The position numbers and the translations under genes were made by a program. Positions 3,671 to 40,060 of a stretch of DNA of 40,060 bases are shown here, one piece after another (the stretch's first letter is position 1; every line of letters starts with the position of its first letter). The stretch is from positions 1 to 40,060 of the forward strand of contig CAZDQA010000001.1 of assembly GCA_964507605.1 (NCBI GenBank). The letters run 5' to 3'. The DNA is from an uncultured Pseudomonadales bacterium. Lineage in GTDB: Bacteria > Patescibacteriota > Microgenomatia > UBA1400 > CG1-02-47-37. Under the pieces are notes generated by a model that was not told the origin of the DNA, did no database searches, and saw nothing but the letters and a program-made list of their open reading frames with translations.

Positions 3671-3696
3671 ACCTGCAAGGAACATCCTTGTAGGCC
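3671..3696. repeat. REP-like hairpin copy H1
   Basis: a-CCTGCAAGG-aacat-CCTTGTAGG-cc. The stem is 9 bp with one G:T at stem position 4. It lies between the J-domain gene and the ICMT-like gene. Confidence 0.7.
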
Positions 3697-3716
3697 TGCA
3701 AAACCGTTCCAAATAG

Positions 3717-4205: not shown

Positions 4206-4230
4206 ACCTTCAGGGATCAACCCTGTAGGC
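4206..4230. repeat. REP-like hairpin copy H2
   Basis: a-CCTTCAGGG-atcaa-CCCTGTAGG-c, starting 6 nt after the ICMT-like stop codon. Confidence 0.7.
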
Positions 4231-4252
4231 GTGCAGAAACTATCTTAAATCG

Positions 4253-5850: not shown

Positions 5851-5856
5851 AATTTA

Positions 5857-5906
5857 ATTATAACTCCCTATTGACAAATAAATTACATATTCTATTATAC
5901 GAATAT
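5857..5906. promoter_or_regulatory. Divergent leaderless promoters (coaW / arsR-like) plus a 6-8-6 inverted-repeat candidate operator
   Basis: Plus strand: TTGACA 5871-5876, 16-nt spacer, TATTAT 5893-5898, ATG at 5905. Minus strand: TATAAT (complement of 5857-5862), 6-nt gap, ATG at 5850. The inverted repeat ATATTC(5887-5892)-N8-GAATAT(5901-5906) overlaps the + strand -10 and start. Confidence 0.55.
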
Positions 5907-10602: not shown

Positions 10603-10604
10603 AA

Positions 10605-10617
10605 TATAACCGTTATA
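10605..10617. promoter_or_regulatory. Perfect 13-bp palindrome TATAAC-C-GTTATA upstream of rnj
   Basis: Read directly from the sequence. It sits in a 41-bp AT-rich intergenic region. TATAAA at 10632-10637 lies 6 nt before the ATG at 10644. Confidence 0.4.
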
Positions 10618-10643
10618 ACGATTATAAAAATTATAAACATTAT

Positions 10644-22246: not shown

Positions 22247-22366
22247 ACTTTTACCTTAGCCTGTTAGCGTGCAGGCTGGTCTTTGTTCGTCAATTTCCAA
22301 GTTACGCCTTAAATTAAAGTGTCTTATTCAACCTTTATCATTGACAAATAATTGCTAATTATCAAC

Positions 22367-22391
22367 AAAACGGGATTTATGCCCGTTTTTT
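22367..22391 (+). terminator. Terminator-like hairpin plus T-run in the rpoB leader (candidate attenuator)
   Basis: AAAACGGG-atttatg-CCCGTTTT followed by TTGTGTTTATTTT. It ends ~18 nt before the rpoB ATG at 22409. Confidence 0.45.
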
Positions 22392-22408
22392 GTGTTTATT
22401 TTACAAAA

Positions 22409-25400: not shown

Positions 25401-25678
25401 CCTTAGGCGGTAAAGCCCAAATGGGCGGTCAAAGATTAGGAGAAATGGAAGTTTGGGCCCTTGAAGCTCATCGGGCCGCTCACACCTTGCAAGAAATGCT
25501 AACGATTAAATCTGACGATGTGGTTGGCCGGGCCAAAGCCTTTGAAGCGATTGTTAAAAGTCTGGATATTCCTGAAGCCACTGTCCCCGAATCTTTCCGG
25601 GTTTTAGTTAAAGAACTTCAGAGCCTCAGTCTTAATATTATTCCCGGCGGCATTACCGAAGAGGAATTAGATGACTAA
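22409..25678 (+). CDS. rpoB: DNA-directed RNA polymerase subunit beta
   Basis: [13 protein letters not shown], the RRxRxVGEL region, SQLSQF-equivalent blocks, [12 protein letters not shown] and [16 protein letters not shown] prefer the ATG at 22409 (MIKTNSR...) over the TTG-extended ORF at 22352. Confidence 0.95.
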
Positions 25679-28600
25679 ACTAACCGACTTTTCCACCCTA
25701 CAAATAAAACTCGCCTCGCCCGAGGTGATCAAAAGTTGGTCTCACGGCGAAATTCTCAAACCGGAAACCATTAACTACCGGACCCTCAAACCGGAAAAAG
25801 ACGGTTTATTCTGCGAGCGCATTTTTGGTCCTACCAAAGATTGGGAATGCTACTGCGGTAAATATAAGCGCATCCGCTACCGCGGCATTATCTGTGACAA
25901 ATGCGGCGTTGAAGTTACTCAAAGCCGCGTCCGCCGCGAACGCATGGGCCATATTAACCTGGCTTGCCCGGTGGCCCACATCTGGTTTTTCAAAGGCGCT
26001 CCCTCCCATTTATCTTTAATTTTAAATATTTCTCCCCGTAACTTAGCCGGCGTTATTTATTTTGCCAAATATTTAGTGATTGATATTGACAAAGATCTCA
26101 AAAAATCTACCTTTGCCAACCTTGATCGGCAATTTACTGACAAAATTAAAGAGCTCGATAATCAGTTGAAATTGGATATCAAAGCCGCCGAAACTGCCCA
26201 AACCCAAACCGTTAAAGATATTAAAGCCAAAATCAAAACCAAAGAGCAGGCCGAGATGGCTATCAACGAAGCCAGCCTTAAAACCAAGCGCGCCATTGCC
26301 TCTTTTAGAGAAATTCTGGTCAATGAAAAAGAAACCGCCAAGGAAATTTTCGCCACAGTCAAAGATTTAGTTAAACGCATTTATCCTCACACTGTTCTAA
26401 GCGAAGAAGAATACTTAAAACTGCTCGATTATAATGCCGGCGACTTTACGACCGTGGGCATGGGCGCCGAGGCCATTTTAGAATTAATTAAAAAAATTGA
26501 TTTTGACAAATTAACCGTCCAATATCGTCTGGACGTTCAGAATTATTCCGGTCAACGCCAAATTAAAGCCATTAAATGTTTGCGCATCTTAGAAAGTTTC
26601 CATAAAGTCGGCATCGATCCGGCCTGGATGATCACCACGGTTCTGCCGGTTATTCCTCCGGATTTACGGCCCATGGTCCAGCTCTCCGGCGGCCACTTTG
26701 CCTCCTCGGACATCAACGATCTTTACCGCCGGGTGATCAACCGCAACAACCGCCTTAAACACTTAATGAACTTAGGCGCCCCGGAAATAATTTTAAGAAA
26801 TGAAAAACGCATGCTCCAGGAAGCCGTCGACACTTTAATTGACAGCTCTCAAGCCCGGGCCACTCGCCGCCGGGGAGTTAAAGAACTCCGTTCTTTGGCG
26901 GATATGCTCCGCGGCAAGCAGGGCCGTTTCCGCCAGAACCTGCTCGGCAAACGCGTGGACTATTCCGGCCGTTCCGTTATTGTTGTTGGCCCTGAACTTA
27001 ACTTAAATCAAGCCGGCATTCCCAAGCAAATGGCTTTGGAAATCTTCAAACCCTATGTTTTAAGAGAGTTGATCAATCGGGGATTAGCCCCCAATGTCAA
27101 GTCCGCTAAAAACGTCCTCGACCGCCGCCCGCCGGAAGTTTTCGATATTTTAGAAGATGTTATTAAAGATCACCCGATTTTATTAAACCGCGCCCCCACC
27201 TTGCATAAACTGGGCATCCAGGCCTTTTATCCTGTTTTAGTGGAAGGTAATGCCATTCACCTTCACCCCTGTGTTTGCGCCGGTTATAATGCTGACTTCG
27301 ATGGCGATCAAATGGCCGTTCACGTCCCTTTATCCAAAGAGGCCCAGAAGGAATCGATTGAGTTCATGATGCCCAAAAATAACCTTTTAAAGCCGGCCGA
27401 TGGTTCGCCGGTCACCTTGCCTAACAAAGAAATGGCTTTGGGAATTTACTACTTTACCTCGGTTAATGACCATCTGTCAGCCGATACCACCATTTTTTCT
27501 TCTGAACAGGAAGCTGTTCTGGCCTATCAATCCCAAGCGATTAGCCCCCGCCAACCAATCAAAGTCAGAATCGACAAAGTCATTATCGACACTACGGTTG
27601 GCCGGATTTTATTTAACCAAGCCTTGCCGGCCAGTCTTCGTTTTATCAATCATCCGGTTAAGGCTTCCGACATTAAAACTTTAATTAAAAAAGCCATTGC
27701 CGTTTGTACCCCTGATGAAACCGTCAAGTTAATTGATGATCTGAAAAATTTTGGCTTTAATGCCGTCACTCTTTCCGGTCTGTCTGTTTCCGTTTCTGAC
27801 TGCCGGATTGTTCCGGAAAAAAACAAGATGATTGAAGCCGCCAACAAAAAAGCCGCTTTAATTGAAGAAAATTACAAAAACGGTTTGATTACCCGGGAAG
27901 AAAAGCGCCGCTTGAGCAACCAGCTCTGGATGGAAACTACCGATACGATTGCCGATAAAACCTGGAATAATTTCGACTCAGAAAATTCCGTCAAACTGAT
28001 CATTGATTCCGGCGGCACCCGCGCTTCCAAAGACCAGGTCAAACAGTTGGCCGCCATGCGCGGTTTAGTCATTGATCCTTTGGGTAAAATCGTCGAGTTG
28101 CCGACCAAATCCAACTTCCGGGAAGGTTTATCTATCTTTGAATATGTCACTTCTTCCCGCGGCTCCCGGAAAGGCTTAACCGACTCGGCTATCAAAACCG
28201 CCGACGCCGGCTACTTAACCCGCCGTTTAGTTGATGTTGCCCACGATATGATTATCCGCCTGGAAGATTGTCATACCAAAGACGGCTTAACTATTAAAAA
28301 TAACGGCAAGCGCAGCCAACATTTTGCCACCAGGATCACCAGTCGCTACTTAGCCAAAGATGTTCTTAACCCAAAAACCAAAAAAGTAATTGCCAAGAGA
28401 AATACTTTAGTTGAAGAAGATACGGCCGAGGCCATTGTCAAAGCCAAGGTTGAATCAGTTGTGGTTCGCTCTCCTTTAAGCTGCCAGGCAAAATACGGCA
28501 TCTGTGGCAAGTGTTATGGTTGGGACTTTTCCACCAAAAAAGAAGTTACTATCGGCGCCCCGGTCGGCGTTGTCGCCGCTCAATCAATCGGCGAACCAGG

Positions 28601-29336
28601 CACCCAATTAACCATGCGGGTCAAGCACTTCGGCGGCATTGTTATTTCCGACGTCACCCAAGGTCTGCCCCGCGTCGAAGAACTTTTTGAAATTAGAAAT
28701 CCTAAAATCATTGCTCCTTTAGCCGAAGCCGCCGGTAAAGTTAGCCTTAAAGACACCCCCCGCGGTTATGAAATTACTGTTGCCGATAAAACCTACCTCA
28801 TCCCTTTAACTTCCACTTTAAGGGTTAAAAATCACCAATTGGTCGGCGCCGGCGAACAGTTAGCCTCCGGTTCAGTCAGCATCAAAGATCTTTTAAAAAC
28901 CCGGGGCATGCGGGCTTCCCAGGAATATTTAATTGAAGAAATCCAGGCCGTTTATGAATCCCAGGGTATTCCCATTCACGACAAGCATTTCGAAGTCATT
29001 GTCCGCAAGATGTCTGATAAAGTCCAGGTGGAAACTGTCGGCGATACCGAGCTGTTAATCGGCGAATTTGTCGAAAAAACCAGATTAGAAGAAGAAAACA
29101 GCTTGGCCAAAACCAAAAAAGGCTTAGCGGCCACTGTCCGGGAAGTTATTTTAGGCGTCACCCGCTCTTCTTTGCACACCGAATCTTGGCTTTCCGCCGC
29201 TTCCTTCCAAAATACCTCCAGTGTTTTGACTAACGCCGCCGCCCGAGGTAAAATCGACAAGCTCTTAGGTCTTAAGGAAAATGTGATTATCGGCCGGCTG
29301 ATTCCTACCAGCGAAGAAAGAGCGAGACACGAATAA
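25671..29336 (+). CDS. rpoC: DNA-directed RNA polymerase subunit beta'
   Basis: 1221 aa with a Zn finger ([23 protein letters not shown]), [12 protein letters not shown] and the trigger loop/bridge helix regions. It overlaps the rpoB stop by 8 nt. Confidence 0.95.
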
Positions 29337-29338
29337 AT

Positions 29339-29851
29339 ATGCCTACCATTAATCAGCTTATCAAAAAAAAGCGCCGTCATAAACCTAATAAAATTAAAGC
29401 GACCGCCTTAAGAAAAACTTTTAATTTTAAAATTAGGCGCATGAAGGCGACCATCAACCCGCAAAAACGCGGGGTTTGTCTGTTGGTCAAAACCATGACT
29501 CCCAAAAAACCCAACTCCGCTTTAAGAAAAGTTGCCCGGGTCCGCTTGTCCAACAAGCAGGAAGTCACCGCTTACATTCCGGGCATCGGCCATGAATTGG
29601 CCGAACACTCGATTGTTTTAGTCCGGGCCGGCCGTGTTCCGGACCTGCCGGGTGTTAAATACCACATTATCAGAGGTAAATACGATACCGCCGGTGTTGT
29701 TAATCGTAAATCCTCCCGATCCAAATACGGCACCAAAAAATCAGGTGCCACTACCAGTACTGCCGCGGTCACTGCCGGAGCTAAACCTGCTCCGACGACC
29801 GTCGGAGTCGCTCCCGCCCCAGCCGCCAAACCAGCCACCACCGCCAAATAA
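29339..29851 (+). CDS. rpsL: 30S ribosomal protein S12 with a small N-terminal insertion and an Ala/Pro/Thr-rich C-terminal tail
   Basis: [41 protein letters not shown] and [14 protein letters not shown]. At 170 aa it is longer than the usual ~125-140 aa. Confidence 0.93.
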
Positions 29852-29854
29852 TAT

Positions 29855-30334
29855 ATGTCCAGATCAGGAAAAATCACCAAAATCACCATTGCCCCCGACC
29901 CGATTTATAACAGCCGTTTAGTGGCCAAAATCATCAATGTGGTCATGAAAGCCGGTAAAAAATCAATTGCCCAAAAACAAGTCTATCAAGCCTTGGATAT
30001 TTTAAAAGAAAAAACCAAAGCCGATCCCTTAAATACCCTGCGCCAGGCCTTAGATAATGTTAAACCTTCCATGGAAGTCCGCTCCCGCCGCATCGGCGGC
30101 GCCGCTTACCAGGTGCCTTCTCCCGTCAGGGGAGACCGCAAAGAATCATTGTCCATTCGCTGGGTGATTAATGCCGCCCGGGCCCGGTCTAATCGGGAAT
30201 TTCATCGTTTTTCCGAAAAGTTAGCCGCCGAACTTTTCGATGCCTTAAATAATCAGGGCGGCGCAATCGAAAAGAAAAACCAGATGACAAAAATGGCCGA
30301 AGCCAATAAAGCTTTCAGTCACTTTAGATGGTAG
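29855..30334 (+). CDS. rpsG: 30S ribosomal protein S7
   Basis: 159 aa with DPIYNSRLVAKIIN, GKKSIAQK, MEVRSRRIGGAAYQVP and ANKAFSHFRW. Confidence 0.95.
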   Translation: MSRSGKITKITIAPDPIYNSRLVAKIINVVMKAGKKSIAQKQVYQALDILKEKTKADPLNTLRQALDNVKPSMEVRSRRIGGAAYQVPSPVRGDRKESLSIRWVINAARARSNREFHRFSEKLAAELFDALNNQGGAIEKKNQMTKMAEANKAFSHFRW

Positions 30335-30367
30335 TATTGTGGCTTCTTTTATAGTGGTTATGATTTT

Positions 30368-30382
30368 TATAACAGTTATAAT
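30368..30382 (+). promoter_or_regulatory. Perfect 13-bp palindrome TATAAC-A-GTTATA overlapping a TATAAT -10 element, leaderless spacing
   Basis: Palindrome at 30368-30380, TATAAT at 30377-30382 and ATG at 30391, an 8-nt gap. Confidence 0.45.
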
Positions 30383-30390
30383 CGTTATTA

Positions 30391-30894
30391 ATGATTCTCC
30401 AATCCAAACCCTTTAAAATCTTCACCCTTGTTTTAGCCGTCACCTTTTACCTCTTGGCTTTTGTCGTTGCCTTTAAACCGGAGCCGTTTTTGCGCTTTGG
30501 CTACTGGGGGATTTTTGCTTTTAACTTAATTGGACCGGGCACTTTTTTAATTCCTGTTGCCAGCCGTCACTTTCTGGTGCTTGGCGTCGCTTTAGCCACC
30601 AGTCTGGGTATGGCTATTAATGACTCGGTGTCCTGGCTGGCCGGTAAAAACGGGGACATTGTTTTTCCTCGTGGCCGGCGGGTCGCCCGCATCGAAGCCG
30701 CGATTAAAAAATACGGCCCCTTTGCTCTGTTCTTTTGGGCGATTATCCCTTTTCCCTATGACTTTATTGCCGTTATTGCCGGCTATCTCAAACTTCCCTT
30801 TAAGCGCTTTTTAATCCCCACCTTTCTCGGCCGGCTAATAAGATTTCTCTTAATGGGCTTCGGCATCGTCGCCATCTGGGGCAAAGTTATCTGA
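30391..30894 (+). CDS. Small polytopic membrane protein, VTT/DedA (YqaA-like) family candidate
   Basis: 167 aa with ~5 TM segments. The pattern GPGTFLIP...NDSVSWLAGK...FALFFWAIIPFPYDFIAVIAGYL resembles the DedA/YqaA re-entrant motif region. The family call is tentative. Confidence 0.5.
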   Translation: MILQSKPFKIFTLVLAVTFYLLAFVVAFKPEPFLRFGYWGIFAFNLIGPGTFLIPVASRHFLVLGVALATSLGMAINDSVSWLAGKNGDIVFPRGRRVARIEAAIKKYGPFALFFWAIIPFPYDFIAVIAGYLKLPFKRFLIPTFLGRLIRFLLMGFGIVAIWGKVI

Positions 30895-30962
30895 TTTTTT
30901 CTTCTTTATAACGATTTATAACTTTTATGATTTTTATAATTTTTATGTTTTAAACTTTTTTG

Positions 30963-30971
30963 TGCTAAACT
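30963..30971 (+). promoter_or_regulatory. Extended -10 promoter (TGcTAAACT), leaderless spacing
   Basis: TAAACT at 30966-30971 and ATG at 30978, a 6-nt gap. Confidence 0.4.
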
Positions 30972-30977
30972 TAAATC

Positions 30978-31706
30978 ATGGAACCAATCCCGCCAACGGC
31001 GATTCCTCCCCAGCCTCCCATTCCTCCCGTCCCGCCCCCACCGTCGGTTCCGCCCGTTATGCCCCCACCCCCTCCCAAGAAAAAATCCTTTGCCTGGCTA
31101 ATTATCTTGATAATCTTTTTACTTCTTGCCTCCACCGGCGTTTTGGCCTATCAGTACTATCAGCTTAAAACTCAAATAGCCGCCCCTACCCCCAATCCGT
31201 CTCTCACTCCTTCTCCAACTTTAAACCAAGTTATCTCACCAGAACTAACAGCTGAACAAGATGCAACCCTTGACACAACTGCCAACTGGAAAACATATAA
31301 TAATACCTTTTATTCTTTTCGGATAGATTACCCGGTTAGGTTTGAGATTGTTGAAAAAACCAAACGCGAAGATTACTATGACACACTCGCCACATTAACA
31401 TCATCATTCAAAGAATCGATTACCCTCAAAGCAATACATGATATTGATATCTATGAAAAAAATGGGCCAGAAATGGTGGCAGAGCGGGAAGTAATGGACA
31501 GCGGGTTTATATATAATATTACTACCACTAAAATCGGTGATTATTTTGCGGCCATCACTACTTTTGACAACAACCCCGATAAAAAATCTCCTACCATCAC
31601 TATTGCCCACCCCAGTAAGAATCTTTTTATAGTTATTGACATTAACACCGACCTTTCTCGAGTCGAGTTTGACCAAATCCTCGCCACCTTTAAATTCACC
31701 AACTAA
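30978..31706 (+). CDS. Hypothetical surface protein with a Pro-rich cytoplasmic N-terminus, TM anchor and extracytoplasmic domain
   Basis: 242 aa. MEPIPPTAIPPQPPIPPVPPPP...KKKSFAWLIILIIFLLL, then a W-x-TY...YP domain ending FDQILATFKFTN. It is a paralog of the next gene. Confidence 0.7.
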   Translation: MEPIPPTAIPPQPPIPPVPPPPSVPPVMPPPPPKKKSFAWLIILIIFLLLASTGVLAYQYYQLKTQIAAPTPNPSLTPSPTLNQVISPELTAEQDATLDTTANWKTYNNTFYSFRIDYPVRFEIVEKTKREDYYDTLATLTSSFKESITLKAIHDIDIYEKNGPEMVAEREVMDSGFIYNITTTKIGDYFAAITTFDNNPDKKSPTITIAHPSKNLFIVIDINTDLSRVEFDQILATFKFTN

Positions 31707-31709
31707 TTT

Positions 31710-32840
31710 ATGGACAACCCACCTATTCAACCACCAATTCCTCCCACCCCCCTCGTCTCGCCGGAGCCCCCCCAGAAAAAATCCCTTGCCTGGCTGATTA
31801 TTCCTCTGCTGATCTTTCTTTTAGCCTTCGGCGGCTACTTTGTTATCCAAATTAATAAATTCAAACAACAACTTAACCAGCCGACGTCTACTGCTGCCCC
31901 CAGCCCGGTTGTTGTTTTACCCTCGCTTTCACCCGATCTCACTGCCGATTGGCAAACCTACACCAATCAAAAACAGAGCTACTCTCTTAAATATCCGACT
32001 TCCTGGCAGATTAACGAAACCGGCGCCACGGTCGACATTAACAATAAACTTACCCTTGCTAAAGATAACTACATTATTACCATTTATGCCAACATTCAGG
32101 GCATTGGGGGAACGGCCAAACAAGTTCCCTCCATCCCGATTACTGTCGCCGGTTTAAATTTATTCAAAAGAGACATCGGTGACAATCTTTATGAAAACAC
32201 CGGCTCTTTTGAAATCAGCGCCAGCGACTCCAGCCCGACCTTTAAGTATCAAGACAAAACTTACGAAATTTATCTCACTTACCCGTTAGCGGAAAAGGGG
32301 ACCCAAGCCTATTTAGCCAACCTGCAAACTTTCGACCTCATCCTCTCCACCTTTAAATTTGTCGATAGTATCGAGCCAGAATCATCTCCATCAACGCCAT
32401 TAGCAAAAATCCCGACGATATCCACCGACAACTGGAAGAGTGCCAGTAATAACGGAGTTCAATTTAAAATTCCCCCGGAAGCTACTTGCAATGATAATCA
32501 AGCTTGCACCTTAATATCTTGGACTTCTGAATATCAGGGAAATACGCTTTATCACAATATTCGCGTTGAGGTAAAAGATTATCTTGGAGGCTCAAGGAGA
32601 GAACAATTTTATCAAAACACTAAACCGGAATGTCATGATATTTATCAAGAAGCCAGTTTTGGCCCGGTTATAGCCCTGCAAATTGCCATTGACGGCGGTT
32701 GGTGCCAAGGTGGTGGTGGAGGCATTGTCACGGTTATTGGCAACAAATTAGTTATTGTCCACAATCTTTTTTATAACCTGGAAACAAAAGTTATCGATCG
32801 TTGGGACGTTCGGGATACGCTTGTATCAACTTTAAATTAA
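31710..32840 (+). CDS. Hypothetical surface protein, a paralog of 30978..31706 with an extra C-terminal Cys-containing domain
   Basis: 376 aa. MDNPPIQPPIPPTP...KKSLAWLIIPLLIFLL, DWQTYTNQKQSYSLKYP and FDLILSTFKFVD. Confidence 0.7.
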   Translation: MDNPPIQPPIPPTPLVSPEPPQKKSLAWLIIPLLIFLLAFGGYFVIQINKFKQQLNQPTSTAAPSPVVVLPSLSPDLTADWQTYTNQKQSYSLKYPTSWQINETGATVDINNKLTLAKDNYIITIYANIQGIGGTAKQVPSIPITVAGLNLFKRDIGDNLYENTGSFEISASDSSPTFKYQDKTYEIYLTYPLAEKGTQAYLANLQTFDLILSTFKFVDSIEPESSPSTPLAKIPTISTDNWKSASNNGVQFKIPPEATCNDNQACTLISWTSEYQGNTLYHNIRVEVKDYLGGSRREQFYQNTKPECHDIYQEASFGPVIALQIAIDGGWCQGGGGGIVTVIGNKLVIVHNLFYNLETKVIDRWDVRDTLVSTLN

Positions 32841-32842
32841 CC

Positions 32843-32989
32843 ATGGACCAACCAATCCCTTCCACCCCCTTTGTCTCGCCGAAGCCTACGGCGAAGGCGG
32901 AGCCGGTTTTTACCCAAACCCCGGTCGCGCCGGAACCGCCTAAAAAATCCTCCAAATGGTTGATTAACCTGCAGGGTCCGACCCTGTAG
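32843..32989 (+). pseudogene. 5' fragment of a third Pro-rich anchored paralog, cut off at hairpin H4
   Basis: MDQPIPSTPFVSPKP...PPKKSSKWLI matches the N-terminus of both neighbours up to the first residues of the TM helix. It then reads NLQGPTL* out of the hairpin repeat. Confidence 0.65.
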
Positions 32990-32992
32990 GCC
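32967..32992. repeat. REP-like hairpin copy H4
   Basis: a-CCTGCAGGG-tccga-CCCTGTAGG-cc followed by TTATTTTT. It abuts the stop codon of minus-strand gene 32993..33475. Confidence 0.75.
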
Positions 32993-33475
32993 TTATTTTT
33001 CCTGACACTCTATTCTTGCTTCAACAGTAAATTTACTATCCACCCTCAGGAATATATCTGCCGGCGTACCTAATTCTTCAAAGATGATTAACGCCTCTTT
33101 TTCAAATCCTAAACCCTCGTCTGGGATAACCATTACTCCCGGCGCTGCCTGTATTGGTGAACCACGTCGAATCAAACATATTTCATCTTCACCTTTTCTC
33201 ATAAAAACTTCTGCTCTGCCACAGCTGACAACTGCGACTGTGGGTTTTCCGCTTGCAATCTTTTTATATTTAGCAGGATTAGGGTAAATAAAAACGCCTT
33301 CGTCTTGTCTGTTTGGATCGCCGGGGGCGGTTAAAAATTCCCCTTCTTGTGTTGGTTTCCAAATTGGCTGCCTAAGTTTATCGGTGATTTCTATTGATTG
33401 CCAGGCTGGTCTTCGTTCTCCCTCAACCCCTCTTTGTCCTGCCGCTTCTCTTATTGAAACTTGAATAGATACCAT
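32993..33475 (-). CDS. Hypothetical protein (cassette gene 1)
   Basis: 160-aa ORF preceded by the shared promoter/stem-loop module. It shares short motifs (PIWKP; GRAEVF..KG) with the 142-aa cassette protein. I recognise no family. Confidence 0.6.
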   Translation of the reverse strand: MVSIQVSIREAAGQRGVEGERRPAWQSIEITDKLRQPIWKPTQEGEFLTAPGDPNRQDEGVFIYPNPAKYKKIASGKPTVAVVSCGRAEVFMRKGEDEICLIRRGSPIQAAPGVMVIPDEGLGFEKEALIIFEELGTPADIFLRVDSKFTVEARIECQEK

Positions 33476-33492
33476 AAATTTTTTACTAAAAA

Positions 33493-33528
33493 TCTCTGCT
33501 TCGGGCAGAGATAATTAAAATTATAACA
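33493..33528 (-). promoter_or_regulatory. Shared module copy a: extended -10 promoter plus 19-nt stem-loop
   Basis: On the coding strand: TGtTATAAT (complement of 33520-33528), 8 nt, then TCTCTGCCCGAAGCAGAGA (33511-33493), 17 A/T-rich nt and the ATG at 33475. Confidence 0.55.
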
Positions 33529-33546
33529 TTTCCCTGACAAAATACT

Positions 33547-33572
33547 ACCTACAAGGTCCAACCTTGCAGGCC
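33547..33572. repeat. REP-like hairpin copy H5
   Basis: a-CCTACAAGG-tccaa-CCTTGCAGG-cc followed by TTTTATTTTTT. It ends 2 nt before the stop of minus-strand gene 33575..33784. Confidence 0.75.
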
Positions 33573-33574
33573 TT

Positions 33575-33784
33575 TTATTTTTTCTTCTCCGGTTGGTGGA
33601 TAAAAAACATTCTTTCCGTGTCAATTTCCGGAATCACCACTGCCAAAGGGTTATTGTCTGCCCCCCCCACAACCTGAGCTTTTAACTCTTTAATTGCCAC
33701 ATAAGGTTCATCATCTTCATGATTGCTGTAATTAATCATTGTTCCCGGCTTAATCGTGATTGTTTTTATTTCTGGTTGGGTCAT
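33575..33784 (-). CDS. Hypothetical small protein
   Basis: 69-aa ORF. On the coding strand TAAAAT lies 5 nt before the ATG, which is leaderless-type spacing. No stem-loop module and no recognisable family. Confidence 0.4.
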   Translation of the reverse strand: MTQPEIKTITIKPGTMINYSNHEDDEPYVAIKELKAQVVGGADNNPLAVVIPEIDTERMFFIHQPEKKK

Positions 33785-33810
33785 AAGCTATTTTACTCTA
33801 TTTTTCCCGC

Positions 33811-33839
33811 TTGCTTTTCCCAAAGAGAGAGAGTAATAT
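33811..33839 (+). promoter_or_regulatory. Promoter of small ORF copy 1 (TTGCTT-N17-TAATAT) with (AG)5 in the spacer
   Basis: TTGCTT at 33811-33816, (AG)5 at 33824-33833, TAATAT at 33834-33839 and ATG at 33848, an 8-nt gap. Confidence 0.5.
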
Positions 33840-33847
33840 TCTGGTCA

Positions 33848-34072
33848 ATGGGATTAGAAATAGGAATACAACAAGCAAAGATGGGCGCCGTTGGTGATGA
33901 GTTTAAAACAGCCACTCCGCCCCCGCCATTAGCTCCAAGAGAGTTAACACCTGCGCAAATTGTTGCCGGTCCTGATATTGGTCAAATGCAAGATTTAGCC
34001 GGCCAAATCGGCCAGTTAGCTCAGGCCCCCCAAAAAGTTGAAGCCCCTGCAACCCCCACTCCAGCTCAATAA
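33848..34072 (+). CDS. Small Pro/Gln/Ala-rich protein, family copy 1
   Basis: 74 aa: MGLEIGIQQAKMGAVGDEFKTATPPPPLAPRELTPAQIVAGPDIGQMQDLAGQIGQLAQAPQKVEAPATPTPAQ. The same frame stays open in the diverged third copy. Confidence 0.5.
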   Translation: MGLEIGIQQAKMGAVGDEFKTATPPPPLAPRELTPAQIVAGPDIGQMQDLAGQIGQLAQAPQKVEAPATPTPAQ

Positions 34073-34108
34073 TTTCCTTAAACTTTTTCCTAGAGAGATT
34101 TATCATGA

Positions 34109-34134
34109 TCCTTCAAGGTCCGTCCCTGAAGGCC
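34109..34134. repeat. REP-like hairpin copy H6 (also a plausible intrinsic terminator for the + small ORF)
   Basis: t-CCTTCAAGG-tccgt-CCCTGAAGG-cc followed by TTATTTTATT. It lies between convergent genes. Confidence 0.75.
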
Positions 34135-34139
34135 TTATT

Positions 34140-34568
34140 TTATTCGCTGAAAGCGCCCACAATTTTGATTTCTTTTACCGGTTGGCCGTCAACTTTTATA
34201 GTTAATCCCATAGTGGCGCCGGAATGGAAAAATATTTCTGCTCTGCCTCCTTTAGCGCTGGCGCGGTCGTTCACGATGGTGACTGGGCCAATGGTTTCTG
34301 GTTCATCTATAGTAATTAATCCCTTTTCTCCCCAAAACACTTCAGCCCCCCCACTGCTGTTGATGCCAATGCCTCCGAATGGTTTAGTATTAAAATTAAA
34401 ATAAACCCCGTCATACTTATTGCCGTTTTCCGGCTTCCAAAGGGGAATGTCTGTATTATAAAATCCATGGGGGAATTTAGGATGTTCTGTCCAGCCTTCA
34501 TTTGGTCTTGGTTCACGCTCCTGGCTTGAAATGGGATCTCTGGTAAAAATCTGTAAATCCAAATTCAT
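34140..34568 (-). CDS. Hypothetical protein (cassette gene 2, copy 1)
   Basis: 142 aa from the ATG at 34568 (MNLDLQIF...). The TTG-extended 152-aa version in the ORF track would translate the stem-loop itself. It has an internal motif repeat GGAEVFWGEKG / GGRAEIFFHSG. No recognisable family. Confidence 0.6.
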   Translation of the reverse strand: MNLDLQIFTRDPISSQEREPRPNEGWTEHPKFPHGFYNTDIPLWKPENGNKYDGVYFNFNTKPFGGIGINSSGGAEVFWGEKGLITIDEPETIGPVTIVNDRASAKGGRAEIFFHSGATMGLTIKVDGQPVKEIKIVGAFSE

Positions 34569-34576
34569 ATAAAAAA

Positions 34577-34630
34577 TCTCTGCTTCGGGCAGAGACAAAT
34601 GTAATATACCTTAGTCTCGACAAATGTCAA
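34577..34630 (-). promoter_or_regulatory. Shared module copy b: TTGACA-N16-TATATT promoter plus 19-nt stem-loop
   Basis: On the coding strand: TTGACA (complement of 34625-34630), TATATT (34603-34608), 7 nt, then TCTCTGCCCGAAGCAGAGA (34595-34577), 8 nt and the ATG. Confidence 0.6.
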
Positions 34631-34640
34631 GGTTTTGTGA

Positions 34641-34666
34641 ACCTTCAGGGTTGATCCCTGTAGGCC
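34641..34666. repeat. REP-like hairpin copy H7
   Basis: a-CCTTCAGGG-ttgat-CCCTGTAGG-cc. It sits between the back-to-back minus and plus promoters. Confidence 0.75.
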
Positions 34667-34697
34667 TTGCTTTTCCCAGAGAGAGAGAGAGTAATAT
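34667..34697 (+). promoter_or_regulatory. Promoter of small ORF copy 2 (TTGCTT-N19-TAATAT) with (AG)7 in the spacer
   Basis: TTGCTT at 34667-34672, (AG)7 at 34678-34691, TAATAT at 34692-34697 and ATG at 34706. Confidence 0.45.
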
Positions 34698-34705
34698 TCT
34701 GGTCA

Positions 34706-34930
34706 ATGAGATTAGAAATCGGCATACAACAAGCAAAGCTGGGCGCCGTTGGTGATGAGTTTAAAACAGCCACTCCGCCCCCGCCGTTAGCTCCAAGAGA
34801 GTTAACACCTGCGCAAATTGTTGCCGGTCCTGATATTGGTCAAATGCAAGATTTAGCCGGCCAAATCGGCCAGTTAGCTCAGGCCCCCCAAAAAGTTGAA
34901 GCCCCTGCAACCCCCACTCCAGCTCAATAA
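34706..34930 (+). CDS. Small Pro/Gln/Ala-rich protein, family copy 2
   Basis: 74 aa. It differs from copy 1 only at residues 2 and 12 (MRLEIGIQQAKL...). Confidence 0.5.
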   Translation: MRLEIGIQQAKLGAVGDEFKTATPPPPLAPRELTPAQIVAGPDIGQMQDLAGQIGQLAQAPQKVEAPATPTPAQ

Positions 34931-34966
34931 TTTCCTTAAACTTTTTCCTAGAGAGATTTATCATGA

Positions 34967-34992
34967 TCCTTCAAGGTCCGTCCCTGAAGGCC
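34967..34992. repeat. REP-like hairpin copy H8 (identical to H6)
   Basis: Lies within the 858-bp duplicate. Confidence 0.75.
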
Positions 34993-34997
34993 TTATT

Positions 34998-35426
34998 TTA
35001 TTCGCTGAAAGCGCCCACAATTTTGATTTCTTTTACCGGTTGGCCGTCAACTTTTATAGTTAATCCCATAGTGGCGCCGGAATGGAAAAATATTTCTGCT
35101 CTGCCTCCTTTAGCGCTGGCGCGGTCGTTCACGATGGTGACTGGGCCAATGGTTTCTGGTTCATCTATAGTAATTAATCCCTTTTCTCCCCAAAACACTT
35201 CAGCCCCCCCACTGCTGTTGATGCCAATGCCTCCGAATGGTTTAGTATTAAAATTAAAATAAACCCCGTCATACTTATTGCCGTTTTCCGGCTTCCAAAG
35301 GGGAATGTCTGTATTATAAAATCCATGGGGGAATTTAGGATGTTCTGTCCAGCCTTCATTTGGTCTTGGTTCACGCTCCTGGCTTGAAATGGGATCTCTG
35401 GTAAAAATCTGTAAATCCAAATTCAT
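34998..35426 (-). CDS. Hypothetical protein (cassette gene 2, copy 2; identical to 34140..34568)
   Basis: Identical translation in the ORF track. Confidence 0.6.
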   Translation of the reverse strand: MNLDLQIFTRDPISSQEREPRPNEGWTEHPKFPHGFYNTDIPLWKPENGNKYDGVYFNFNTKPFGGIGINSSGGAEVFWGEKGLITIDEPETIGPVTIVNDRASAKGGRAEIFFHSGATMGLTIKVDGQPVKEIKIVGAFSE

Positions 35427-35434
35427 ATAAAAAA

Positions 35435-35488
35435 TCTCTGCTTCGGGCAGAGACAAATGTAATATACCTTAGTCTCGACAAATGTCAA
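35435..35488 (-). promoter_or_regulatory. Shared module copy c (identical to copy b)
   Basis: Lies within the 858-bp duplicate. Confidence 0.6.
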
Positions 35489-35498
35489 GGTTTTGTGA

Positions 35499-35524
35499 AC
35501 CTTCAGGGTTGATCCCTGTAGGCC
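35499..35524. repeat. REP-like hairpin copy H9 (identical to H7)
   Basis: Lies within the 858-bp duplicate. Confidence 0.75.
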
Positions 35525-35555
35525 TTGCTTTTCCCAGAGAGAGAGAGAGTAATAT
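35525..35555 (+). promoter_or_regulatory. Promoter of small ORF copy 3 (identical to copy 2)
   Basis: TTGCTT, (AG)7 and TAATAT, with the ATG at 35564. Confidence 0.45.
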
Positions 35556-35563
35556 TCTGGTCA

Positions 35564-35791
35564 ATGAGATTAGAAATCGGCATACAACAAGCAAAGCTGG
35601 GCGCCGTTGGTGATGAGTTCAAAACAGACACCCCGCCGCCGCCCTTACTTCCAAGAGAACCGTTAACCCCTGGGCAAATAGTTGCCGGCCCCGACATTAA
35701 CCAAATGCAAGAAGCGGTTGGTTATGCGGGGTGGTTACGTCAGACCCTTAAAAAAGTTAAAGCCGCTCTAACCCCTACTCCAACTCAATAA
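35564..35791 (+). CDS. Small Pro-rich protein, diverged family copy 3
   Basis: 75 aa: MRLEIGIQQAKLGAVGDEFKTDTPPPPLLPREPLTPGQIVAGPDINQMQEAVGYAGWLRQTLKKVKAALTPTPTQ. The N-terminal 21 aa, the IVAGPDI block and the TPTPxQ end are conserved while the middle is replaced. Confidence 0.5.
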   Translation: MRLEIGIQQAKLGAVGDEFKTDTPPPPLLPREPLTPGQIVAGPDINQMQEAVGYAGWLRQTLKKVKAALTPTPTQ

Positions 35792-35859
35792 TTTTCCTAA
35801 ACTTCCTAAGTTACCTAGTTTTCTTCTTTATAACCGTATCGCTATTTTTCTCCTTTTAA

Positions 35860-36438
35860 TTATACCTCGGGGTTTAAAAGATAAGGTCCATCAACAATTT
35901 CTATCATCATTTGATTTAAAGGGTACATTAGGTCTTCCCAAACCCGCATTCCTCGTAGCACTGGCATTCCTGTTTGTGGATTTGTTGGCGGATCCAAAAA
36001 CAGCACGATCTCTCCTTCTTCGGAAGGCGTGAGTCTTTCTGTCCGTGAAAATCTCCATTTACCATCTTCCAGGCAAGCTTCAACGAAAAAACCACCTGGG
36101 TCTGTGGACGCGCCAATCAGTCTCTGTGAATCTTTTGTTATCGTTACTAAAGGTTTGTCAGCTTCATTTTTTATGACGACTTCGAGATTGCCGTCTCTTT
36201 CCCTATACTGCAATCGATTAACGTTGGCCATTAAAGCGCTCTGATCATCGCTCTCCTGAACCAAGGCCATTATTGGTAACAAGCCGCCTTCTTGGGTACC
36301 AAAGGCTAATTGGATCAAGCGATCGGGGAACACCAACCCTTTATTAGAAAGTTCCTCAATTAGCATGGCTACTCCCGGCATTATCCGGTCCAGCTGCATC
36401 GGTCTCGGCTGTTTATCAATAGAGGATTCTGGTAGCAT
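35860..36438 (-). CDS. Hypothetical protein (cassette gene 3)
   Basis: 192-aa ORF preceded by the shared promoter/stem-loop module. No recognisable family. Confidence 0.6.
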   Translation of the reverse strand: MLPESSIDKQPRPMQLDRIMPGVAMLIEELSNKGLVFPDRLIQLAFGTQEGGLLPIMALVQESDDQSALMANVNRLQYRERDGNLEVVIKNEADKPLVTITKDSQRLIGASTDPGGFFVEACLEDGKWRFSRTERLTPSEEGEIVLFLDPPTNPQTGMPVLRGMRVWEDLMYPLNQMMIEIVDGPYLLNPEV

Positions 36439-36465
36439 AATCTCGTTTTATTTTTTTACTAAAAA

Positions 36466-36519
36466 TCTCTGCTTCGGGCAGAGACAATGTTAATATATCC
36501 TCTTCTCGACAAATGTCAA
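36466..36519 (-). promoter_or_regulatory. Shared module copy d: TTGACA-N16-TATATT promoter plus 19-nt stem-loop
   Basis: On the coding strand: TTGACA (complement of 36514-36519), TATATT (36492-36497), 7 nt, then TCTCTGCCCGAAGCAGAGA (36484-36466), 27 nt and the ATG at 36438. Confidence 0.6.
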
Positions 36520-36534
36520 GTTTTTGTATATAAT
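36506..36534 (+). promoter_or_regulatory. Candidate fusA-tuf promoter (TCGACA-N17-TATAAT), interdigitated with minus-strand module d
   Basis: TCGACA at 36506-36511 and TATAAT at 36529-36534. The -35 region overlaps the -35 of the opposing promoter. Confidence 0.45.
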
Positions 36535-36571
36535 CCGCTTACTATTAATTAACTCTATTTCTCTTAAAGCC

Positions 36572-36598
36572 ATCGCTTCCTCAAGAGAAGCGATTTTT
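36572..36598 (+). terminator. Terminator-like hairpin plus T-run 10 nt upstream of the fusA start
   Basis: ATCGCTTC-ctcaaga-GAAGCGAT followed by TTTTAT. Confidence 0.45.
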
Positions 36599-36608
36599 AT
36601 TGCCATCT

Positions 36609-38747
36609 ATGGCTGAACAATCCGCCACTGCCAAAAAGCGCCACGTGCCTCTGGATAAAATCCGGAATATCGGCATTATTGCCCATATTGATGCCGGCAA
36701 AACTACTACCACCGAGCGGATTCTTTTCTATACCGGAAAAACCTACAAACTTGGTGATATTGACGAAGGCACCACCCAGATGGACTGGATGGCCCAGGAG
36801 CGCGAGCGGGGCATTACCATTGTCTCTGCCGCCACCACTGCTTTCTGGACGCAAATTCTTCCCGGCGCCGTTCCCCATGAAGAATACCGCATTAACATTA
36901 TCGACACTCCCGGCCATGTGGACTTTACCGCCGAAGTCGAACGCTCCCTCCGCGTTTTAGACGGGGGGATTACTGTTTTAGATGCCGAAGAAGGCGTCCA
37001 GTCCCAATCAGAAACCGTCTGGCACCAGGCCGATAAATACAATGTTCCCCGTCTTTGTTTTGTTAATAAAATGGACAAGCTTGGGGCTGATTTTTTAGCC
37101 ACGGTTCAGGATATTAAAGACCGCCTCGGCGCCAATCCGGCCATTATGGCCCTGCCGATCGGGGTAGAGTCTTCGTTTAAGGGGATAGTTTTGCTCTTAG
37201 ATCAAAAAGCGATGATTTGGCATTCAGATGAAACCGGTGCTGAATATGACATTACCGATATTCCCCAAGACATGGCCGATCAGGTTAAAGAATACCGGGC
37301 CAAATTAATCGAACAAATTTCCGAGCATGACGACGCTTTGTTAAACAAATATTTAAACGGCGAAGAACCGACCGTGACGGAGCTAAAAACCGTTTTAAGA
37401 AAAGCCGTCATTGCCTACAAACTGGTGCCGATTTTTTGCGGTTCGTCTTTAAGAAACAAAGGCGTTCAGCCCTTGCTTGATGCCGTGGTTGAGTATCTGC
37501 CCAGCCCGGTCGATCTGAAAGAAGTCAAAGGCACCCACCCCAAAACTAATGCCGAAGAACTCCGCCTCTGCAACAATGAAGCCCCTTTCTGCGGTCTGGC
37601 TTTCAAAATTCAATCCGACCCGCACGTCGGCCGCTTAATCTATGTCCGCATTTACTCCGGCACCCTTAAATCCGGCAGCTATGTTTACAACTCTACCAAA
37701 GATAAAAAAGAACGTGTCGGCCGCCTGCTGTTAATGCATGCCAACGACCGCGAAGAAATTCCCGAAGCCTTTTCCGGGGAAATCGTCGCCCTGGTCGGTT
37801 TAAAAGACACCACCACCGGCAATACTTTAACTGATGATAGCCACCCGATTATTTTGGAAGGGATTACTTTTACCGAACCGGTCATCTCGTTGGCCATTGA
37901 GCCCAAAACCAAAGCCGACCAGGAAAAAATGGGTTTTGCCTTAAAGCGGCTTTCTGAAGAAGATCCTACTTTTACAATTAAATCCGATCCGGAAACCGGC
38001 CAAACCATTATTTCCGGCATGGGCGAACTGCACTTGGAAATTTTGGTCGACCGGATGAAGCGGGAATTTAAAGTCGAAGCCAACACCGGCCAACCCCAGG
38101 TTGCTTACAAAGAAACTATCAAAAAAATCGCCGAAGCCGAAGGTAAATACATTCGCCAATCCGGCGGCCGCGGCCAGTACGGCCACTGTTTCTTAAGGAT
38201 TGAGCCCAAAAGCCGCGGTGAGGGTTTTGAATTTGTTTCCGAAATCACCGGCGGCACCATTCCCCGGGAGTTTATTCCTCCGATCGGCAAGGGCGCCAAA
38301 GAAGCCGCGGAAAACGGCGTGATTGCCGGCTTTCCTTTAGTCGATGTCAAAGTGGCGGTTTACGACGGTTCTTTCCATGATGTTGACTCTTCGGAAATTG
38401 CCTTCAAAATTGCCGGTTCTATCGCTTTCCAGTCAGCGGTCAAACAGGCTGACCCGATTCTTTTGGAGCCGATCATGAAACTCGAAGTTTCTTCCCCCGA
38501 AGAATTTATGGGTGAGATTATCGGCGATCTGTCCAAAAAACGGGCCCGCATCTTAGGCACTAACAAGCGCGGCCGGATATTAATCATCAATGCCGAAGCC
38601 CCCTTGGCAGAAATGCCCCAATATGCTACTATTCTCCGTTCCATGACTCAAGGCCGGGCCAGCTTTTACATGGAGCCGTCCCACTACGAGGAAGTGCCCA
38701 ATAACATTGCCCAAAAAATTATTGCTAAATCTGCCAAAAACAGTTAA
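36609..38747 (+). CDS. fusA: Elongation factor G
   Basis: [51 protein letters not shown] and NKMD, plus the domain IV/V blocks. I prefer the ATG at 36609 over the TTG at 36600. Confidence 0.95.
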
Positions 38748-38778: not shown

Positions 38779-39957
38779 ATGGCCACTTTTCAACGCACTA
38801 AACCGCATGTAAATGTCGGCACCATTGGTCACGTCGATCACGGTAAGACCACTTTATCTGCGGCTATTACCCAATATTTAGCCAAGAAAAACCTGGCTAC
38901 TGCCATGAAGTTTGAGGATATTGATAAATCCCCCGAAGAAAAGGAGCGGGGCATTACTATCTCGATTAGTCATTTAGAGTACGAGACCGAAAAACGCCAC
39001 TATGCGCATATTGACTGTCCCGGACACAAGGACTATATCAAGAACATGATTACCGGCGCGGCCCAAATGGACGGCGCTATTTTAGTGGTTGCCGCCACCG
39101 ATGGCCCTATGCCCCAAACCCGCGAACACATCTTGCTGGCCCGCCAGGTTAATGTGCCGGCCTTGGTGGTTTTCTTAAACAAATGCGACGCTGTCGATGA
39201 TAAAGAAATGATCGATTTAGTCGAAGAGGAAATTCGCGAACTGCTAACCAAGTATGAATTTCCCGGTAAAGACATTCCCATTATTCGCGGCAGTGCCCTC
39301 AAAGCCCTGGAAGGGGATGCTGAAGCCGAAAAATCCATCGCCGCCTTGGTAAAAGCGCTGGATGAATCTATTCCCGAGCCCAAACGGCCGCTGGACCAGC
39401 CGTTTTTAATGGCCGTCGAAGACGTCTTCTCGATCAAAGGCCGCGGCACGGTCGCTACCGGCCGGATTGACCGGGGTAAGATTAAAGTCGGTGAAGAAGT
39501 CGAAATTGTCGGCTTAAAACAGTCTAAAAAATCCGTGGTTACCGGCGTCGAGATGTTCCGGAAACAGCTCGATGAAGGCCTGGCCGGCGATAATGTTGGC
39601 ATTCTCTTAAGAGGGATTGAAAAAGACGACATTGAACGCGGTCAGGTTTTAGCCAAGCCGGGTTCAGTTACCGCCCACACGGAGTTTGAAGCCCAGGTTT
39701 ATATCTTGAGCAAAGAAGAAGGTGGTCGTCACACTCCTTTTTTCACTGGTTACAAACCCCAGTTTTACATCCGGACCACTGATGTGACCGGCGATGTTTC
39801 CCTCGAAAAAGGGGTGGAAATGGTTATGCCTGGCGATAATGCCAAGATGACTGTCAAACTCATTCAGCCGGTTGCCTTAGAAGAAGGCTTGCGGTTTGCT
39901 ATCCGCGAGGGTGGCTTAACTGTTGGGGCTGGAGCGATTACTAAAATCCTTGCCTAA
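38779..39957 (+). CDS. tuf: Elongation factor Tu
   Basis: 392 aa with [18 protein letters not shown] and NKCD. A strong Shine-Dalgarno (AAGGAGG) lies 5 nt upstream. Confidence 0.97.
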
Positions 39958-39985: not shown

Positions 39986-40025
39986 GTGTCACTGTGTCAC
40001 TGTGGCACTGTGTCACTGTGTCACT
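39986..40025. repeat. 8-bp tandem repeat (GTGTCACT)x5, with one T>G variant
   Basis: Units at 39986, 39994, 40002 (GTGGCACT), 40010 and 40018. The repeat ends 10 nt before the rpsJ ATG. Confidence 0.9.
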
Positions 40026-40035
40026 TTCTTTATTT

Positions 40036-40060
40036 ATGCCAAAAGGCCGCATACGCATCA
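40036..40060 (+). CDS. rpsJ: 30S ribosomal protein S10, 5' end only (runs off the window)
   Basis: MPKGRIRI matches the usual S10 N-terminus (xxxKIRIKL type), and the position after tuf is canonical. Only 8 codons are visible. Confidence 0.55.

Follow-up and report, generated by a model that had tools for sequence, protein, structure and literature searches.

In the 40,060-nt stretch of DNA analyzed here (contig CAZDQA010000001.1, referred to as the window), a block of genes lies between rpsG and fusA, two members of the classical str operon (rpsL-rpsG-fusA-tuf). The closest genomes are metagenome-assembled genomes of Microgenomates, within the candidate phyla radiation (CPR), labelled Candidatus Beckwithbacteria. 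This block is probably an ancestral, vertically inherited islet with a fast-changing interior, situated between two transcription units. The same gene families hold its two ends in related lineages, the segments between them differ, and the junction is broken repeatedly across the class.

According to the model we favor, the str operon of this Beckwithbacteria-like clade would be divided into two transcription units. Unit 1 would consist of rpoB-rpoC-rpsL-rpsG together with a VTT/DedA gene specific to the lineage and the genes for Pro-rich anchored proteins, ending at a terminator that resembles repetitive extragenic palindromic (REP) elements at 32.97-33.0 kb, and unit 2 (fusA-tuf-rpsJ and onward) would begin at 36.5 kb, where a conserved promoter and a hairpin leader of its own are located. 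The stable ends of the islet would be VTT at rpsG and, at fusA, at least one cassette for a beta-sandwich protein of the m152/m160 family, transcribed away from fusA. Its middle (surface-protein paralogs, m192 and s87, with toxin-antitoxin modules in relatives) may turn over by homologous recombination between short repeats of two kinds, namely REP-like palindromes, probably spread by a Y1 transposase of the REP-associated tyrosine transposase (RAYT) type, and ~70-nt promoter-hairpin modules. Such a module of promoter and 5' hairpin would head each cassette, and an unequal crossover between s87 copies would have produced an 858-bp duplication, doubling m152.

Synteny of the rpsG-fusA block in relatives and across the class

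Pfam assignments and coordinates confirmed the original prediction of a ~6.3-kb block between rpsG (ending at 30334) and fusA (starting at 36609), with the gene order rpsL-rpsG-fusA-tuf kept around it. At 6274 nt, this gap is the largest among 54 related loci having fusA downstream, and it places a terminator-like hairpin (32968-33000) and five opposite-strand open reading frames (ORFs) between two genes that would otherwise be neighbors. After three previously unlisted copies of s87 were added, 12 ORFs were counted in place of the 11 claimed before, one of them (m69) doubtful. The VTT gene, both Pro-rich paralogs, a third one that is truncated, and the array on the opposite strand, with promoters of its own, were all recovered as described, and none of the block genes has a known link to translation. 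Tight packing upstream held for rpoC/rpsL/rpsG (gaps of 2 and 3 nt), with rpoB and rpoC overlapping by 8 nt.

Comparison with relatives showed that the ends of the block are shared and that the middle segments alone differ. VTT directly follows rpsG in five other lineages, members of the m152/m160 family are found in five (L084, L090, L095, L104 and L100), and four have both on one contig. L014 (about 90% nucleotide identity) reads rpsG-VTT-HicB-HicA-p376-like up to the contig end; it is 89.6% identical up to 30886, hicB-hicA replaces p242, and the alignment resumes at 31736. L001 reads rpsG-VTT-p376-like-methyltransferase-like ORF-fusA, the VTT start codon overlapping the rpsG stop codon by 1 nt. 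The order in L084-89 and L099 (contigs of up to 75 kb, the length of L084; rpsG-VTT gap of 4 nt) is rpsG-VTT-146 aa-...-MazE-PIN-s87-like-(two opposite-strand m152 homologs)-208 aa-fusA. In L090-93, it is rpsG-VTT-143 aa-s87-like-(m152 homolog)-fusA, with a gap of about 1.85 kb and, in L090, a single contig that runs from rpoC to fusA within 3.9 kb. L104 reads rpsG-VTT-HicB-like-239 aa-MazE-PIN-159 aa-(family gene)-fusA. The fusA side of L095 is 89.7% identical from tuf to window position 36461, in the leader hairpin, and then continues into a tandem m160-type pair. The m152/m160 genes are oriented away from fusA in L084, L090, L095 and L104; L100 has both the family and VTT on a contig too short to include fusA. 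HicAB, MazE-PIN, p242 and m192 each occur in some lineages only, even among relatives that are ~90% identical in DNA.

Since VTT and m152/m160 hold the block ends in other lineages, an insertion specific to this genome, as originally predicted, was not supported. Related genomes carrying the same genes throughout the gap had been named as the sign of an ancestral arrangement; this was found for both ends, including the VTT, p376 and m152/m160 families at the same site, and not for the middle.

The state of the junction was also surveyed in 80 species-representative loci of Microgenomates, with genes 300 nt or less apart scored as adjacent. Adjacency was found for rpoC-rpsL in 79/79 loci, for rpsL-rpsG in 79/80 and for fusA-tuf in 35/45. 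For rpsG-fusA, it was found in 31 of the 69 scorable loci, the remainder having 0.3-6 kb inserted (23) or no fusA within at least 9 kb (15). Because the adjacent or disrupted state changed at least 16 times on a neighbor-joining rpoC tree of 72 taxa, the rpsG-fusA junction is a recurrent weak point in the class, and the split is common there and not exceptional for the lineage. The genes found in the gaps are mostly mutually unrelated (e.g., GH1 glycosidase, PMT glycosyltransferase, M29 peptidase and P-type ATPase), and all-against-all BLAST of gap ORFs left 111 singletons. In an Amesbacteria-type clade (L013, from 10.4 kb, and about 20 loci), rpsG is followed by rpsD-rpoA-rplQ...rpsI; rpsD stands directly after rpsG, so that the str and alpha clusters of this whole clade have lost the fusA-tuf-S10-spc block that separated them. 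A full-text literature search returned no description of an rpsG-fusA break in CPR bacteria.

The classical str operon is a single transcript (PMC6735719 Fig. 2). As in Escherichia coli and Bacillus subtilis (rpsL-rpsG-fusA-tufA), the gene order followed by the S10 cluster is kept here; unlike there, 6.27 kb containing convergent genes separates rpsG from fusA, the latter has a conserved promoter of its own, and rpsL starts 2 nt after rpoC, so that unit 1 would be fused to rpoBC. In Gammaproteobacteria, multigene insertions occur between concatenated translation operons (Brandis et al. 2019, PMC6735719). The present case is similar in that lineage-specific multigene insertions split conserved clusters whose gene order is otherwise kept. 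It differs in that the break falls inside a normally single operon and recurs class-wide.

Transcription signals, repeats and duplication

The -10 box of the putative fusA promoter aligns across six lineages, including L001 and L084, whose upstream neighbor differs, and its -35 box lies in a palindrome (CTYGAC-N4-GTCRAG) common to the divergent promoter of the m192 cassette on the opposite strand. A hairpin with a U-run sits just before the fusA start in six lineages in two sequence versions; the sequence is different in L084, L090 and L104. The claim that fusA has its own promoter thus gained support from the -10 box and hairpin/U-run leader kept in six lineages, which at the same time suggests that this promoter is old and not newly acquired. 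Read-through from rpsG to fusA appears unlikely because of the strong terminator-like hairpin and 3.5 kb of convergent genes. A genome-wide rule of a hairpin plus U-run before start codons was considered and rejected, as terminator-like sites at 1-20 kb were at chance level. Most window genes have no Shine-Dalgarno sequence; in many, a hexamer resembling a -10 box precedes the ATG by 6-10 nt (e.g., 5849-5898, 3733, 9640 and 30391), and these look leaderless. At 5849-5898, one palindromic -35 box is common to two genes arranged back to back.

Two kinds of short repeat are concentrated in the block. A palindrome of 23-27 nt (CCTKCAGGG-N5-CCCTGNAGG) was found by pattern search at eight distinct window sites (0 expected); the earlier count of six in the block stood, its total of nine did not. 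All are single, palindromic sites between genes or at gene ends. The copy at 32968-32994, together with a T-run, is the top terminator-like match. The third Pro-rich paralog is cut off exactly at this hairpin, which encodes the final residues of its translation (...PPKKSSKWLI, continuing as NLQGPTL to the stop), and this element also closes the p376-like gene of L001. In L003 (76% rpoC identity), the gap (10484-11345) contains solely a Y1_Tnp ORF (IS200/RAYT-like; 37.9 bits vs. a cut-off of 23) and four near-identical hairpins, for which reason the 27-nt hairpins of the window are read as REP-like elements. REP/REPIN and RAYT (Y1) systems (PMC3116915, PMC3337134) likewise have short GC-rich extragenic palindromes in multiple near-identical copies; those described here are kept across genomes with core proteins about 80% identical and surround Y1_Tnp in L003. 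Unlike in REP/RAYT systems, the transposase ORF of L003, as read, encloses two of the four hairpins there, and no RAYT was found in the window.

The second hairpin type has four copies, all in the block, and belongs to a promoter-leader module of ~70 nt composed of TTGACA-16-TATATT, the hairpin TCTCTGC-CCGAA-GCAGAGA (-11 kcal/mol), U5-6 and ATG. The three minus-strand TTGACA-16-TATATT sites, at the heads of m152-1, m152-2 and m192, each match 11/12 consensus positions, and the promoter ahead of m160 is degenerate. The module is kept at the nucleotide level upstream of family members in L084, L090, L095, L096 and L104. An in-frame peptide, SLPEAEIFIM, which spans leader hairpin, U-run and ATG, is present in P0012-P0016, proteins 41-48% identical to m152. 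Support for the stem is modest, with 91% of cells paired and one clean compensatory pair; a second such pair stems from a poorly aligned row.

Stem-loops at 5' ends are known as stabilizers (e.g., the ompA 5' UTR) and as leader attenuators (e.g., intrinsic-terminator attenuators). The module resembles these in having a hairpin of 7-9 bp a few nt from the predicted start, followed by U5-6 and the start codon; the single clean compensatory change and the absence of an Rfam match qualify this likeness. Integron cassette arrays likewise line up small cassettes with the same short element at each start and a content that varies among close relatives. Unlike an integron, this array has no IntI (Pfam, PHROGs, PADLOC and NCBIfam) and no attC/attI, and each cassette has its own promoter-leader module. 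Integron identity was accordingly rejected, rearrangement appearing to be ordinary homologous recombination.

As had been noted, the whole tandem duplication lies inside the block. Each 858-bp unit contains s87, a REP-like hairpin, m152, the module and a second hairpin. Copies 1 and 2 differ at five positions, all in the first 105 nt, and partial copy 3 (265 nt) is 80-91% identical. The s87-2 gene is a hybrid, its 5' part equaling s87-3 and its 3' part s87-1 except for a unique base at 34786, with the switch at 34740-34760. This is the expected product of an unequal crossover between s87-1 and s87-3, which it would fit; a wrong assembly path through the repeat could in principle give the same pattern. 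The view of the block as a recombination-prone spot was borne out by the paralog truncated at a hairpin, the duplication with its hybrid junction, and the segment swaps in ~90% DNA-identical relatives.

Table 1 Positions of genes, signals and repeats in the window.
Feature	Position	Strand	Description
REP-like palindromes outside the block	3672-3698, 4207-4233		
rpoB	22352-25678		Pfam
rpoC	25671-29336		Pfam
rpsL	29339-29851		Pfam
rpsG (S7)	29855-30334	+	Pfam Ribosomal_S7, E 3e-56; final translation gene ahead of the block
AT-rich spacer	30335-30390	+	TTATAA/TATAAT-like repeats, repeat family D8
VTT/DedA-family membrane protein	30391-30894	+	Pfam VTT_dom, 45.2 bits vs. cut-off 33.9
p242	30978-31706	+	Pro-rich N-terminus, one transmembrane segment, weakly PsbP-like domain; p376 paralog
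p376	31710-32840	+	Anchored; Pro-rich N-terminus, one transmembrane segment
Truncated third paralog	32843-32989	+	N-terminus alone remains; end inside REP-like hairpin
REP-like palindromes in the block	32968-32994, 33548-33574, 34110-34136, 34642-34668, 34968-34994, 35500-35526		
m160	32993-33475	-	Divergent m152-family member; full-length alignment A2
m160 leader hairpin (33492-33511) with degenerate promoter	33492-33540	-	
m69	33575-33784	-	Doubtful ORF, 69 aa
858-bp tandem repeat	33824-35804		Copy 1, 33824-34681; copy 2, 34682-35539; partial copy 3, 35540-35804
s87-1	33848-34072	+	Small Pro/Gln-rich protein, 74 aa
m152-1	34140-34568	-	Orphan all-beta protein
Promoter-leader module	34576-34630	-	Head of m152-1
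s87-2	34706-34930	+	
m152-2	34998-35426	-	Identical to m152-1
Promoter-leader module	35434-35488	-	Head of m152-2
s87-3	35564-35791	+	
m192	35860-36438	-	Orphan unrelated to m152; same promoter-leader module
Promoter-leader module	36465-36519	-	Head of m192
Putative fusA promoter	36506-36534	+	TCGACA-17-TATAAT, 11/12 consensus positions
fusA leader hairpin and U-run	36572-36599	+	Ends 10 nt ahead of ATG; -14.4 kcal/mol, z -2.7
fusA (EF-G)	36609-38747	+	Pfam; start 36600/36609, ATG at 36609; heads downstream unit fusA-tuf-rpsJ
tuf	38779-39957		Pfam

Proteins of the block and flanking genes

The VTT protein is 76-90% identical to its counterparts in L001, L014, L084, L090 and L104. It was given no specific function, because it scored 18-19 bits against UptA equivalogs (NCBIfam), far below their cut-offs of 250-300. 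The spacer ahead of it contains a TATAAT 8 nt before the ATG, which could be a leaderless-type promoter. AT-rich TTATAA/TTATGA repeat arrays lie on both sides of VTT (30348-30388 and 30915-30963); in L001 and L084, VTT abuts rpsG with neither spacer nor arrays. The Pro-rich proteins p242 and p376 are related (BLASTP E 4e-12), and their matches to Pfam PsbP and PsbP_2 (15.9-16.8 bits, below cut-offs of 23.5-27) are a hint at most. Identity of p376 is 75% in L014 and 63% in L001, and further family members lie in the gap of L017 and L051. A sequence-profile search of the PDB with p376 gave no match.

Nothing credible was found for m160, m69, m152, m192 or s87 in Pfam, PHROGs, PADLOC or NCBIfam, and m69 is called as a gene nowhere in the collection. 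The m152 and m160 proteins align over their full length, with P0023 bridging both subfamilies. A profile search of 1.84 billion representatives with the m152 family matched 15 clusters, one of which (P0025, a 940-aa zinc-finger repeat protein) was spurious and rejected as a member, and a metagenome locus search with alignment A1 yielded three loci. In L095, and likewise on the 1.5-kb contig L096, which does not include fusA, two m160 homologs of 57.5-62% identity stand in tandem. Genomic context could be used for eight lineages, and in six of them (this window, L084, L090, L095, L104 and L100) the m152 family occupies the space from rpsG to fusA. m192 shows no similarity to m152, and a single homolog (P0006, on a 757-nt contig without useful context) was found among 5.8 billion proteins.

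AlphaFold 2 generated a confident all-beta model of m152 from a 20-sequence alignment (pLDDT 85.8, pTM 0.81); a model from a 4-sequence alignment (pLDDT 53) was unusable and discarded. No fold was assigned, because Foldseek matches of the model in the PDB and BFVD were generic Ig-like or beta-sandwich ones (best E 0.07-0.09, TM-score at most 0.35). Sequence-profile searches of the PDB gave no match for the A2 profile and two chance-level matches (E about 0.6) for m192.

The small s87 protein is probably coding, because its frame is kept in 3/3 copies with a 3-nt indel, synonymous changes are present (13 synonymous vs. 18 non-synonymous codon differences), and an ORF of 69 aa at the equivalent position beside the m152 homolog in L084 is 45% identical (E 7e-6). 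Upstream of each copy, a (GA)n tract (33822-33833, 34679-34692 and 35537-35550) lies between TTGCTT and TAATAT hexamers, which are 17 nt apart at copy 1 and 19 nt apart at copies 2 and 3. One extra GA unit at copy 3 in L094, an independent assembly, makes the tract length-polymorphic; it could modulate a promoter.

On the flanks, the rpsL product has 170 aa (151 aa in L084 and L090); it carries a basic insertion in its N-terminal part and ends in an Ala/Pro/Thr-rich tail of 34 aa. Downstream, rpsJ starts at 40037, and the S10 cluster continues after tuf on the same-strain contig L097. Between the tuf stop and the rpsJ ATG, an octamer is repeated in tandem, (GTGTCACT)x5, at 39986-40025. It is also present in L097 and in none of the relatives, and could be a regulatory or slippage-prone element before the S10 operon.

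Alternative explanations and implications

Several observations weigh against an ancestral islet between two transcription units, or against parts of it. Promoters, terminators and unit boundaries were assigned as consensus matches. The close relative L001 has no member of the m152 family, and two distant members lie away from fusA, in L101 and L106, so the family is not strictly locus-bound. The L101 member (639-1462, 35% identical) adjoins tRNA-Ile, tRNA-Cys and a weak integrase-SAM-like N-terminal ORF, and its leader is homologous to the module with a Shine-Dalgarno sequence, AAGGAG, replacing the hairpin; the L106 member lies beside a PIN gene, and its divergent neighbor is a different one. 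No Y1 transposase was found in the 40-kb window. Tetranucleotide distance over the block is 0.19-0.21 vs. 0.10-0.16, an ambiguous value, as the reference excluded the block and internal repeats confound it. Finally, same-strain short-read contigs cover 28233-33508 (L081), 34740-36481 (L094) and the sequence from 36455 (L097), and because they break at repeats, the joins at ~33.5, 34.7 and 36.46 kb, the cassette order and the second m152 copy are supplied by the original assembly alone.

These gaps in coverage bear on the possibility of an assembly artefact, i.e., a mis-join, or an array mis-ordered or falsely duplicated at the four-copy module or the 858-bp repeat. Same-strain Logan contigs stop exactly at repeats (33508, 34740 and 36455/36481), no independent contig crosses 33.5-34.7 kb or the m192-fusA join, and copies 1 and 2 share about 750 nt without a difference. 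Against this, the rpsG-VTT junction was reproduced in three runs at 100% protein identity, L081 (99.9% DNA identity) spans the p376-m160 junction too, and the base unique to copy 2 recurs in the independent contig L094, linked to m152. Assemblers also usually collapse tandem repeats instead of creating them. Single contigs of relatives, up to 75 kb long, share the layout rpsG-VTT...family gene-fusA, which makes a gross mis-join unlikely, and we regard an artefact of any of these kinds as improbable.

Less probable still is a recent horizontal insertion, in which the block or its right half would be a mobile island that landed in an intact str operon of this genome. It could draw on the scarcity of outside homologs (P0006 alone for m192, none for m69), on the occurrence of m160, m69, s87, m152 and m192 in 0/80 related gaps, on the distant family member beside two tRNA genes and a weak integrase-like ORF, and on the slightly raised tetranucleotide distance. 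However, no integrase, recombinase or transposase was found in the block (Pfam, PHROGs, PADLOC and NCBIfam), nor any repeat pair bracketing it (flanking direct repeats or att sites), and whole-window scans detected no tRNA and, at Rfam gathering thresholds, no Rfam match. Its GC content is native (0.436 vs. 0.445 elsewhere). Toxin-antitoxin or defense genes were not credibly detected in it either, Pfam giving no such family and PADLOC only a sub-threshold match to p242 (13.8 bits). Several lineages, with S7 identities as low as 68%, keep the VTT, p376 and m152/m160 families at the same positions. Viral contigs yielded no match to m152, m192 or the leader hairpin when searched, and a phage origin was dropped for this reason. 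Taken with these results, a recent insertion is very improbable.

Functional coupling is compatible with the ancestral islet. Here, m152/m160 would be kept beside fusA by co-regulation through the shared promoter and palindrome, acting on translation or growth-rate control. The family gene and fusA are immediate divergent neighbors in L090, L095 and L104, their start codons about 90-170 nt apart, the -35 palindrome can serve both strands, both genes have a hairpin and U-run leader, unlike most window genes, and promoter and leader are better conserved than the proteins, as the SLPEAEIFIM peptide illustrates. Conversely, m192 separates the family from fusA in this window and a 208-aa gene does so in L084, L001 manages without the family, distant members are located elsewhere, and neither sequence nor fold matches the proteins to a known translation factor. 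Such coupling is possible, at a low probability. Equally tentative is an extension in which the fusA-proximal array would be a dedicated lineage-specific cassette locus, where a portable promoter-hairpin-U-tract module expresses, shuffles and amplifies cassettes and a palindromic -35 operator shared back-to-back with the fusA promoter ties them to the translation-factor operon. The module is kept more strongly at the nucleotide level than the proteins it would drive and is common to unrelated ORFs (the m152/m160 family and m192). If true, CPR bacteria would have an arrangement for regulation and diversification that has not been described before.

The ancestral islet remains the explanation we favor, and the locus can be classed as a variation on known kinds of genome-plasticity region, to which a new orphan family and a conserved leader are added. 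In this small and tractable locus, the way genes turn over may be legible in sequence, through its REP-like hairpins, promoter modules present in several copies and unequal crossover, and the orphan protein family with its conserved 5' leader beside fusA is new and worth experimental testing. Overall, members of one large CPR class routinely depart from a gene linkage that ranks among those considered most conserved in bacteria, and gene-order assumptions used in annotation, binning and operon prediction need checking before transfer to these organisms.

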